Source: Eledone cirrhosa (lineage: Eukaryota). From it: a DNA stretch of 64,000 bases. This document shows positions 15,682 to 59,720 of this stretch, piece by piece (position 1 is the stretch's first letter; every line of letters begins with the position of its first letter). A program made the position numbers and the translations under genes. The stretch is from the NCBI GenBank assembly GCA_964016885.1, contig OZ024742.1:142352001-142416000 (forward strand), given 5' to 3'. The notes beneath the pieces were generated by a model. It saw only the letters and a list, made by a program, of their open reading frames with translations. It did no database searches and was not told where the DNA came from.

Positions 15682-16605
15682 ATATATATATATATATATG
15701 TGTGTATATATATATGTATGTGTATATATATATATATGTATGTGTATATATATGTATGTATATATATATATGTATATATATGTATGTGTATATATGTATA
15801 TATATATGTATATATATATATATGTATGTGTATATATATATATGTATGTGTATATATTTGTATGTGTCTATATATATATGTATGTATATATATATGTATG
15901 TGTATATATATATGTATATGTATGTATATATATATATATATGTATGTGTATGTATATATATATATATATGTATGCGTATATATATATATATATATATATA
16001 TATATATGTATATGTATTTGTATATATATATATATATATATATATATATATATATGTTTGTATGTATGTATATATATATATATATATATATATGTGTGTG
16101 TGTGTGTGTATGTATATATATATATATATGTGTGTGTGTGTATGTATATATATATATGTGTGTGTGTATGTATATATATATATATATATATATATATATA
16201 TGTGTATATATATATATATATATATATGTGTATATATATATATATATATATATATATGTATATATATGTGTATGTATATATATATATGTATGTATATATG
16301 TATATATATATATGTATGTATATATGTATATATGTTTGTATATATATGTATATATATATATATGTATATATATATGTATGTATATATATATATGTATATA
16401 TATATATGTATATATATATATATGTATGTATATATGTATGTATATATATATATGTATATATATATATATATATGTTTCTATATATATGTATATATATATG
16501 TATATATATATATATATATATATATATATATATATATATATATATATGTATATATATATATATATAATATATAAGATCAAAAGATAGTTAAATGAGTTCC
16601 ATGTA

Positions 16606-16672
16606 TTTTATTATGCGCATTTCGAAAACAAATATCATCATGCAATAACATTTGTGTTTTCATCAGATAAAA
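16606..16672 (-). ncRNA. Minimal type I hammerhead in the inverted pLTR
   Basis: Reverse complement: ttttat-CTGATGA-long stem II-GAAA-tgcgca-TA-ataaaa; palindromic stem III. Confidence 0.75.
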
Positions 16673-57049: not shown

Positions 57050-59720
57050 TGATTTCTAATTTAGGCAAAAGGCCAACAATTTGTGGAGAGGGAAAAATTG
57101 ATTACATCAATCCCAGTACATGACTGGTACTTAATTTTATTGATCCCGAAAGGATGAAAGACAAAGTTGACCTCAGCAGAATTTGAACTCAAAACATAAA
57201 AACTCAGAATAAATAATGCTAAGTATTTGTCTGACACCCTGGTTACTCCAGTCCTCCATCCTTATATAATAATGATAATCATGGTTACTAACACAGGCAC
57301 AAGGCCTCCAATTTTGGCTAGGAGAGGGTATAGTCCATTAAATTGACTCCAGTATTTGACTGGTATTTTATTTTATCAAGCCCAGTGGAATGAAGGGCAA
57401 AGTTGACCGTGGTAAGATTTGAATCCAGAACATAATCAGGAACAAATATCTGACACTCTAATGGGTCTGCCATTCCACTATCTGGTTATAATGGTTACCA
57501 GAAAGACAAACAATTTGTGTTCAAAGCAAGTCAATTAAATCAACCCCAGTACTTAACTGGTTCTTTATTTTATCAATCCCAGGAGGATGAAAGGCAAAGT
57601 TGGCAAGATAATGAACTCGGAACATAAAAATATGGGACAAGAGAGATGACAAAGGACTGTGAAAGACTGGCGAACACTCACCTGCCAGCACAAAAGTGTG
57701 TCATGACCCACCTCCCCCAACCGTCGATCCTACCATCACTGTATATTCTCCACTCTACTCAGGATCACCCCACTTCTGCACTGTCAAACCCCACCATACC
57801 TGCCTTATACTTTCTTCACGCCTTCTCTCCCATATCACCACTTGAACCCCAACATCAAATCAATCACTACACAACCTCTTGTCACCTATGATATACATAA
57901 CATCCTCCTTAATTCTCCCATCCTATTCCCACTCTACATCACCCCCAACAGGGTAAAGAAGGTTTTTCAGTCAAGTCTATGACTGACAACCTCCCTAGTA
58001 TTGGCACCATGATAAAACAATATCCAGCACAGTCTGTAAAGTGGTTGGTGCTAGGAAGGACTCCCAGATGTAGAAACCATGCCAAAAAGAGTTGGGAAGA
58101 CCCTCCAATCACAACACATCTCTAGTGCCGGTAGCATGATAAATGCACCCAGTATACACTGTAAGGTGGTTTGTGATAAGAAAGATATCCAGCCATAGAA
58201 AACCTGCCAAACAGAGGGTATTTTATTTTATAGACTTTGGAGAGATGAAAGGCAAATTTGACCCACTCCCTCCAGCAAAATTTGAAATCAGAATGTAAAG
58301 AGAGAAAAATCAACTACTTCCTACTATTTAAGTTTGGTGCACTATCATGTTTGTCCCTCCACCATCACAATAATAATAATAAGCTTTGGAACCTCTGGTC
58401 ATTTATTTTGACCAGCTTCTAAAGTTTAGATTCAGTTGAAGATCTACCAGTGTTCAAAAGATAATAATTTCTAATTTAGGCACAAGGCCAACAATTTGTA
58501 GGGAGGAGAATGCCAATTACATCGGCCCCAGTACATGACTGGTACTTTATTTCATTGACCTTGGAAGGTTGAAAGGCAAAGTTGACCTTAGTGGAATTTG
58601 AAATCATGACGTAAAGGGCTGCTGGAACAAATACCGCAATGAATTATTTTCCTTTCTAATACTCAAACAATTCCTCAAATAATAATAATAATTGTTTCTA
58701 CTTTTGGCACAAGGCCAGCAATTACCCAGTATATAACTGGTACTTTATTTTATCGACCCCGTAAGGATGAAAGGCAAAGTTAACCTCGGCGGGATTTGAA
58801 CTCAGAATGGCAAGGGCCGTAACTCAATGCGTCAAAGCATGGTGTCCAACCCTCTATCGATACTGCCAATCCATCTGTATTCAATTTATTTTTCCTGCTG
58901 AAGTTTATTATTGTTATTGAAAGAATTGTTAGAACATTAGAAAGAAAAATAATGTGTTCTGATTCTACATTCAGAGTTCAAATCCCTGTAAGGTTAACTT
59001 TGCTTTCATCTTTCTGGGGTTGAAAAAATAAAATACCAGTCACCTCTGCACAAATTGCTGGCATTCTGTCTAAATTAGAAATCATTAATATTAATGATTT
59101 CTAATTTAGACAGAATGCCAGCAAATTGTGCAGAGGTGAAAGTCAATTATAACGTCCCAGTACTTGACCGGTATTTTATTTTTTCAACCCCAGAAAGATG
59201 AAAGCAAAGTTAACCTTACAGGGATTTGAACTCTGAATGTAGAATCAGAACACATTATTTTTCTTTCTAATGTTCTAACAATTCTTTCAATAACAATAAT
59301 AAACTTCAGCAGGAAAAATAAATTGAATACAGTGTTTTCATTTTCTTTTAAATCTACTTCAAAAACATTTTCGTCCCTTTCATTGTTTGAAATAATAAAG
59401 TAAGTAAGCAGGTGTTTATATCTATAAAACAAACTTGACTGCCAGTCACCCCAACTACGCTCTCTACCTAACATTTAAGAAGAAATAAGGTGGGGGGGGG
59501 GGGCTATCATTCAACCCATCTAATAAGGCGTACAACAGAGACAGTTGACTTGAAAAATATTTATCTACCTTCCCCCACCCCCTCATAATGAGGCAAATTG
59601 ATTGGCTTGTTAGGGCATCAGAAAGAATACTTTGAAGCATTTGCTCCAACTCACTGTGCTTTGAGTTCAAATCCTACCAAGATCAGCTTTGTCTATCATC
59701 CTTTCAAAGTCAATAAAGAA
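57050..59720. mobile_element. Cluster of about nine SINE copies of mixed age, mostly on minus
   Basis: Repeated ggtactttattttat.gacccc..aggatgaaaggcaaagt motif near 57130, 57360, 57560, 58220, 58540 and 58740, plus copies near 59000, 59170 and 59670. Confidence 0.8.
58875..59332. repeat. Spacerless palindrome of a degenerate SINE plus flank, centre 59089/59090
   Basis: gaaatcattaat|attaatgatttc; arms near-identical except for 28 extra bp on the right. Confidence 0.9.

Follow-up and report, generated by a model that had tools for sequence, protein, structure and literature searches.

Inverted duplications beside Penelope-like elements in a genomic window of Eledone cirrhosa: three known kinds and an unusual 10.6-kb palindrome

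A 64-kb stretch of the genome of the mollusc Eledone cirrhosa (GenBank assembly GCA_964016885.1, contig OZ024742.1, positions 142,352,001 to 142,416,000, here called the window and numbered from its first letter) contains seven inverted duplications. We conclude that they comprise three known kinds, plus an unusual 10.6-kb palindrome centred on a Penelope-like element (PLE). Each geometry has published precedent; what is noteworthy but unverified is the one large foldback. The original prediction had assigned all seven to a single fold-back geometry at the 5' truncation points of retroelements. The window has a G+C content of 34.5%, no Ns and abundant TA and TG microsatellites, and its assignable coding frames are transposon-derived: two frames with a reverse transcriptase (RT) domain that resemble long interspersed elements (LINEs), a mariner fragment and several PLEs.

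All seven pairs are present, within a few bases of where they had been placed, and the largest arm is about 358-fold longer than the smallest. Self-BLAST without masking was overwhelmed by the TA microsatellites and was rerun with masking. The sizes given for the duplications are confirmed, and the pairs far exceed chance: 23 loci have exact inverted seeds of at least 18 bp outside microsatellites, whereas 100 local shuffles gave 0.03 seeds on average and never more than 1. Twelve of these loci pair copies of dispersed families and one mirrors the 26633 structure; the other ten are the seven pairs and three that look like terminal inverted repeats (7066/7985, a mariner; 8304/9464; 14113/15173) and were for that reason excluded as foldbacks. 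The idea of one shared geometry does not survive this comparison: the spacers are 0, 1, 26, 325, 348, 1450 and 1527 bp, and the copied material is in some pairs the element itself, in others the 3' end of a separate element, or flank.

The 10.6-kb palindrome has a left arm of 10,740 bp (20117-30856) and a right arm of 10,529 bp (31205-41733), which lacks 137 bp found in the left. The arms differ by 0.5%, with 48 substitutions across the 9,116 unmasked columns of their alignment. About 91% of the left arm (9,775 bp) is PLE, short interspersed element (SINE), hairpin or microsatellite, and the duplicated arm shows no recognisable host coding frame. The apex is the truncated 5' end of a PLE RT. 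Between the arms lies a 348-bp spacer (30857-31204, minus strand) of single-copy RT sequence from the element PLE-A (29399-31188, minus strand); it is in frame with the left arm, implying that the left arm is the template side. At the apex junction (31166-31207), PLE-A is truncated at about 31188, the next 19 nt (31189-31207) directly re-copy 31166-31184, and a 3-nt microhomology, CAT, leads into the right arm. A staggered apex with a reverse-transcribed insert, as in breakage-replication/fusion foldbacks, is thus found here, the stagger being 348 bp within the PLE-A RT.

The outer edges show that the right side is ancestral. An older hairpin continues past the edge of the duplication, where 41734-41766 is identical to the other hairpin arm at 29 of 33 positions (0/1000 shuffles as good), whereas the left arm ends at 20117 against unrelated sequence, and the left outer flank does not match the hairpin arm (698/1000 shuffles as good). 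The new junction, at 20116/20117, is therefore on the template arm. Run-on of a copy into flanking DNA, as had been proposed for this case, would leave the new distal junction on the copied arm and the ancestral flank on the template arm; the observed arrangement is the reverse. Because the older hairpin continues past 41733 and the left arm ends abruptly, the palindrome must once have been longer or open-ended, with arm length set by a second break; 10.6 kb is a trimmed remnant rather than the point at which synthesis stopped. Ancestral continuity on the right also fits replication/fusion foldbacks with a reverse-transcribed insert, as described in two reports (10.1101/2024.12.14.628481; PMC12807874). 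Abutting the new left junction is a candidate PLE 3'-end-like fragment (19620-20116, minus strand), with a pyrimidine tract, half a hammerhead core and an end at (TA)n. A targeted Rfam scan of 19625-20120 found no hammerhead, the fragment matches no other PLE end in the window, and pairwise comparison of 12 candidate PLE 3' ends placed neither it nor the old hairpin. The hairpin itself (41266-41766, mirrored at 20117-20584) is imperfect, with about 90% arm identity and a 44-bp loop, and is interrupted by a SINE with a target duplication of about 19 bp; it may be an old foldback or a miniature inverted-repeat transposable element (MITE).

The pairs at 41934 and 16565 are ordinary inverted pseudo-LTRs (long terminal repeats), with partners about 1.5 kb apart. 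At 41934, the arms 41934-42004 and 43455-43522 are identical at 62 of 71 positions (spacer 1450 bp). The direct copy is PLE-A' (42005-43522, plus strand), 5'-truncated and frameshifted, with its 3' end at (AT)n; its inverted pseudo-LTR (41896-42004, minus strand) has a 38-bp terminal tail (41896-41933) that is missing from the direct copy and finds no match within PLE-A' itself. The stretch 41896-41940 aligns with the 3' end of PLE-A at 35 of 43 positions (0/1000 shuffles as good). At 16565, 16559-17058 and 18586-19097 share 479 matches, with 16 mismatches, 22 gap columns and a 1527-bp spacer. Here the 3' region of PLE-C (17296-19097, plus strand, 5'-truncated) stands inverted at 16559-17295 (minus strand); its outer 500 bp match the direct copy, and its inner 237 bp, which hold three 60-bp repeats, do not (no significant match, 107/300 shuffles as good), so the matched arm ends about 237 bp before the truncation point. 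At both loci the arms stop at the 3' end of the element, with no run into flank.

A copy cannot hold sequence absent from its template, which leaves two separately primed cDNAs, or later loss from the direct copies, as explanations. As far as the sequences can tell, the extra material on the inverted pieces argues against their having been copied from the cDNA of the direct copy. A one-ended tail of 30-40 bp with an inverted layout is described as typical of PLEs (PMC3846280, PMC8557442). Purified PLE protein is reported (PMC11167929) to cut and extend both strands in vitro, with two RT start sites bounding the tail; the one-sided tail at 41934 agrees with those two sites. Separately, of the mismatches between 16574-17058 and 18586-19082, 13 lie in the outer half but 2 in the inner (p=0.007), although about half of them fall in a G-rich tract where the alignment is uncertain; this pattern echoes the identical core of the 10.6-kb palindrome.

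Three other pairs have the inverted piece wholly within the direct copy, as snap-back would require and as is not the case at 41934 and 16565. The structure at 26633 is a clean hairpin snap-back on PLE sequence. Its arms, 26633-26662 and 26689-26718, are identical at 30 of 30 positions around a 26-nt loop, and the whole (26633-26718, mirrored at 35338-35423) sits at the 5' truncation of PLE-B' (25314-26688, minus strand), a relative of the Hydra-like PLE-B with its 3' end at (TA)n. Compared with natural family-B sequence, the cDNA ended in CGAA, and this 4-nt primer re-primed 26 nt back and copied 30 nt. The copy is then joined to a 5'-truncated element of another family, PLE-A'' (26719-27725, plus strand, about 85% identical to PLE-A), so that two different PLE families, both ending at (TA)n, meet head-to-head at 26688/26719. 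Because the 26633 structure is present in both large arms, it predates the large duplication.

At 43823, two PLE-like 3' ends form a near-perfect palindrome (43814-44199; arms 43814-44006 and 44008-44199, 190/193 identical) around a 1-nt loop at 44007. A hammerhead-like core points outward on each arm, with an 8-bp stem I (6 Watson-Crick) and a palindromic stem III. Similarity to the PLE-C end and to the piece at 25126 is weak (equalled by 1/300 and 0/300 shuffles, respectively). Within 43830-44200 a targeted Rfam scan found no hammerhead, the fold z-score was -0.53 and no open reading frame (ORF) was present; it is the hammerhead-like motif that suggests the palindrome to be PLE sequence.

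The third pair (12223-12293/12619-12689, 70/71 identical, spacer 325 bp) is a 68-bp inverted copy (12226-12687): 12226-12293 perfectly copies part of the interior (12620-12687) of repeat D (12294-12738), a repeat of no assigned class. Neither a coding ORF nor a hammerhead core was found in this structure or in repeat D, and its retroelement nature is not demonstrated; repeat D is possibly a non-autonomous PLE derivative. In the stretches 12294-12738, 13378-13443 and 15174-15677 it occurs in two 99%-identical copies; one copy has its own final 58 bp in front of it, in a pseudo-LTR-like manner, and the other has the 68-bp inversion. The inverted repeat 14113-14335/14987-15173, with 34-bp subrepeats and a 651-bp spacer, adjoins a partial tandem of repeat D at its outer right end, and is either the terminal inverted repeats of a DNA transposon or a second target-end foldback like that at 58875.

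The pair at 58875 is a duplication of flanking DNA beside a SINE. Its arms, 58875-59089 and 59090-59332, show 214 matches, 1 mismatch and a 28-bp gap, which is a deletion in the left arm, with no spacer; they contain an old SINE plus neighbouring DNA. The centre (59089/59090) lies on an AT palindrome within the AT-rich 3' tail of the old SINE (distance 0). A young, near-full-length SINE (58681-58874, minus strand), missing only about 4-5 nt, has its 5' end 2 bp from the outer left edge of the duplication. This arrangement suggests that the target end folded, not the cDNA. L1 5' foldbacks of about 52-220 bp occur upstream of insertions in 3-4 cases, or about 0.3% (PMC10191854), and reciprocal-end inverted duplications of L1 are primed by TA/AT (10.1101/2024.12.14.628481, Fig. 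4D-E). The 58875 structure resembles those target-end foldbacks in that an element 5' end joins an inverted copy of the upstream flank with a small AT hairpin at its centre, and 215 bp is within their range; it differs in that its element is an invertebrate SINE, known here from assembled sequence, and in that the copy has the 28-bp deletion (PMC10191854).

The claim that the duplications centre on 5' truncation points therefore stands in part. It is borne out at 26633, at 41934, at the apex of the 10.6-kb palindrome and, presumably, at 43823; it is not at 58875, where the centre is a SINE 3' tail, nor at 16565, about 237 bp off, and 12226 involves no demonstrated retroelement. Enrichment of centres at element 5' ends is similarly divided. 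Inverted sequence adjoins four of the six ORF-bearing PLE 5' junctions (PLE-C, PLE-B'/PLE-A'', PLE-A and PLE-A'; not PLE-B or PLE-E) but only 1 of 19 SINE and LINE 5' ends, and there at the outer edge (Fisher p=0.0055, in a small, post hoc test on one window with 4 LINE ends judged by eye). No SINE 5' end lies at a palindrome centre among 15 independent loci (22 hits merged, two mirror loci dropped). For this window, enrichment thus holds at PLE junctions and fails for SINEs.

PLE-A, which forms the apex of the large palindrome, is 5'-truncated and retains an unbroken 429-codon RT/GIY-YIG frame. It has the layout of an endonuclease-bearing (EN+) PLE, a single ORF in which RT precedes a C-terminal GIY-YIG endonuclease. 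Its protein matches RVT_1 at E=0.001, under the curated cut-off. The GIY-YIG profile does not match the PLE-A protein of the window, in which VYSI...YIGET is directly visible, and matches 9 of 24 aligned members at E<=0.1 (best 1e-4); in a PDB profile search the only matches were two weak ones to RT, with none to a GIY-YIG structure. The linker CIDKKCITC is a CX4CxxC that fits the CX2-5CxxC of Neptune elements, and the C and H columns of the CCHH endonuclease are invariant, so that by motif PLE-A appears to belong to the Neptune clade, which these two features mark (PMC8557442). Of the 106 matches to PLE-A, the one that carries a species name is a protein of Octopus bimaculoides, 56% identical across 63% of the query. 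The same source gives DKT, RWK, a CxCX5C linker, CxxC and CxH as marks of the Hydra clade. PLE-B has DKT and RWR, a variant of RWK, PLE-C and PLE-E have CxCX5C and CxxC, and CxH is present in PLE-B and PLE-C; all three would thus be Hydra-like by motif. The PLE-C frame 17300-17995 also has an Asn-rich stretch between RT thumb and endonuclease, recalling the N-rich inserts of rotifer Penelope elements (PMC3846280). PLE-E (47295-48560, minus strand) is apparently head-to-head with a plus-strand fragment that has a degenerate hammerhead core (48390) and with which it shares no inverted homology.

Hammerhead-like cores closed by stem I occur at 18990, 25126, 28704, 32406 and 44093. That of PLE-C (type I, 18990-19036) is canonical, with an 8-bp stem I and TA flank; that of PLE-A (32406-32434) has a 5-bp stem I, which is shortened in the left copy; no full core was found in the window sequence of PLE-B or PLE-E. 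An Rfam scan of the whole window gave Hammerhead_1 at 28698-28742 with 31.7 bits against a cut-off of 34, the only hammerhead among the 150 of 200 matches listed; the others listed were all under the gathering score, being miRNA families on microsatellites or hairpins. Folding energy does not distinguish the hammerhead-like regions (z = -0.53, +1.03, -2.01 and -1.55).

The account that we on balance hold to be probable is that these inverted duplications are different fates of two unjoined ends left when a PLE, and in one case a SINE, inserts into AT-rich microsatellites. A stalled cDNA end may fold back, pair over 1-4 complementary nt and be extended, as would explain 26633, 43823 and perhaps 12226. 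Alternatively, both ends could prime reverse transcription, and two separate cDNAs would then join head-to-head to give an inverted pseudo-LTR (41934, 16565) or a join between two families (PLE-B'/PLE-A''). At 58875 the opposite target end would have folded, about 215 bp of flank been copied, and the product been joined to the element's 5' end. Finally, a PLE-extended end that stayed open through replication could yield two staggered sister ends whose fusion would produce the long palindrome with its 348-bp spacer; the left arm would later have been shortened to 10.7 kb, with 20116/20117 as its new join to other DNA. The sequence itself shows the geometries, the microhomologies at the junctions, the additional sequence of the inverted pieces and the ancestral side; every enzymatic step, the order of events and the origin of each structure in one insertion are what we infer.

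Several observations weigh against this account. Substitutions between the large arms are over-dispersed (chi-square p=1.7e-4, 10 bins): the innermost 1,167 bp have none (p about 0.001), apart from one 4-bp microsatellite indel at 29804, and a second substitution-free run of 1,243 bp lies mid-arm. The 1,458-bp inner part has 2 substitutions, against 46 in 7,732 for the flanks (Fisher p=0.027). Sister fusion predicts even divergence, so this patchiness requires arm-to-arm conversion, or else the arms are two haplotypes. In addition, the fragment at the left junction (19620-20116) is not confirmed as PLE, a motif match is what speaks for PLE identity at 43823, and PLE-A' and PLE-C are decayed, so that later deletions could account for the pieces missing from them. 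Among the arm differences, 24 of 48 are transitions (p=0.012 versus 1/3), and of 24 distinct sites that could be polarised, by manual tally against distant outgroups, 17 are derived on the left arm and 7 on the right. A fold-back sequencing chimera was rejected, because it would give identical arms, whereas we see this transition share and derived changes on both arms.

The same divergence bears on two other explanations of the large palindrome. A real, young head-to-head PLE-A insertion of 1.1-1.5 kb might have been misassembled into the other haplotype's copy of the flank. The near-identical inner 1.17 kb, the patchy 0.5-0.6% outer divergence, the microsatellite length differences and the 137-bp indel are all allele-like. 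We nevertheless consider such an error unlikely: it needs the haplotypes to differ over 20 kb or more at 20117, 1-20116 having no near-identical counterpart in 41734-64000; the resolved 0.9-kb TA arrays and the absence of Ns suggest reads able to span 1.5 kb; and a simple chimera would be at odds with the transitions and with derived changes on both arms. Palindromes can also arise from short inverted repeats, as is known from yeast and ciliates. PLE-A might accordingly have inserted in inverted form before its 1.46-kb inverted repeat seeded the palindrome at an unrelated break. The apex, the spacer and the open-ended arm are all as this sequence of events predicts. It would also make the inner arms no less divergent than the flanks; they are in fact less divergent, which would need conversion to explain, and we regard this origin as distinctly improbable.

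For the structures as a set, the model of the original prediction, one cDNA snap-back at insertion with continuous run-lengths that sometimes reach into flank, draws on the true hairpins at 26633 and 43823, on the PLE 5' truncation with microhomology at the large apex, on the 4/6 enrichment at PLE junctions and on the earlier proposal of self-priming for PLE junction palindromes (PMC3846280). It founders as a single mechanism on the template-absent sequence of the inverted pieces at 41934 and 16565, whose arms moreover end at an element 3' end rather than in flank, on the SINE-tail centre at 58875, where it is the target end that seems to fold, and on the position of the large palindrome's new outer junction, which is on the template arm. 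For the 10.6-kb case it holds only with later deletion of the left arm's true flank, and we judge it very doubtful overall. The head-to-head pairs (16565, 41934 and PLE-B'/PLE-A'') might instead be independent nested insertions, with junction deletions, in a PLE-dense microsatellite hot spot. The region is crowded with PLE fragments, and the partners share just 87% identity in the 41934 pair and about 97% in the 16565 pair. However, same-family partners meet at their 5' truncations, a layout typical of PLEs (PMC3846280, PMC8557442), and the interrupted remainder of either partner is not seen on the far side; nested insertion therefore seems to us an unlikely origin.

The window holds further repeats. 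A mariner-like element with a Mos1 helix-turn-helix and inverted ends lies within a TA microsatellite (7066-7985), and a MITE-like inverted repeat of about 350 bp (8304-8657/9100-9464, 91%) has a microsatellite inside. No retroelement end was recognised at two small inverted repeats (6286-6342/6537-6593, 49/57, spacer 194; 46773-46818, 20/21, loop 4). A head-to-tail duplication of about 231 bp with 95% identity occupies 50419-50888. At 44771-45463, 12.6 copies of a 27-bp unit form a tandem array next to a short minus-strand frame, which has no Pfam match at E 0.01 and is reminiscent of a Helitron protein fragment.

In L1 twin priming, reverse transcription starts from both DNA ends and the resulting cDNAs are joined; non-overlapping parts of one RNA are inverted relative to each other. 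Here, unlike in twin priming, both pieces begin at the element 3' end, and the result is a duplication. Another parallel is with insertions of endonuclease-bearing PLEs, which share the inverted 5'-truncated copy at the 5' end, the junction palindromes, the one-ended 30-40-bp tail and the (TA)n targets (PMC3846280; PMC8557442). By analogy, this inverted pseudo-LTR precedent would cover 16565, 41934, 43823 and, probably, 26633. The published PLE insertions differ in that, in the parts of those papers available, they invert element sequence, with no multi-kb flank duplication and no two-family joins. The 10.6-kb case resembles breakage-replication/fusion foldbacks in three ways: the apex is staggered, a retroelement sits at the fold, and a separate breakpoint determines how long the arm is. 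It differs from the L1 foldbacks of tumours and cell lines in that the element is a PLE, that element sequence is found on both arms, and that the arms have diverged by 0.5%, which, if the palindrome is real, implies inheritance (10.1101/2024.12.14.628481; PMC12807874). Loop-out/snap-back end joining (PMC5728401) shares the short primers, the inverted templated insert (26633) and the direct re-copy (the 19-nt apex), but is host repair at any break and does not require a retroelement. Among the papers listed by our open-access literature search, with older Penelope papers outside its scope, none concerned a multi-kb flank palindrome with a PLE at its apex or two-ended PLE priming, which is weak evidence of absence; nothing bearing on mechanism was drawn from PMC12910113 or PMC13282606.

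The origin of the tandem and inverted structures of PLEs is called open in PMC8557442. The tail on the inverted copy, together with two-family junctions, allows self-priming and two-ended priming to be told apart by sequence. Beyond the account given above, we offer as a tentative possibility, more doubtful than not in our view, that in the germline of this mollusc the two ends at a PLE insertion are regularly left primed but untethered; pseudo-LTRs would then come from two RNAs, sometimes of two families, and failed joining would give multi-kb foldback palindromes that are inherited and undergo trimming and homogenisation from the centre. The practical weight of the 10.6-kb palindrome is limited: it is a single case, its duplicated arm is about 91% repeat and no host coding frame was recognised there. 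If real, it would mean that an inherited foldback has a PLE end at its apex; foldbacks of this class have until now been described for L1, in somatic cells. If the two-ended germline reading is true, PLEs would be a germline counterpart of tumour L1 foldbacks, and inverted segmental duplications would have in them a source that can be mapped.

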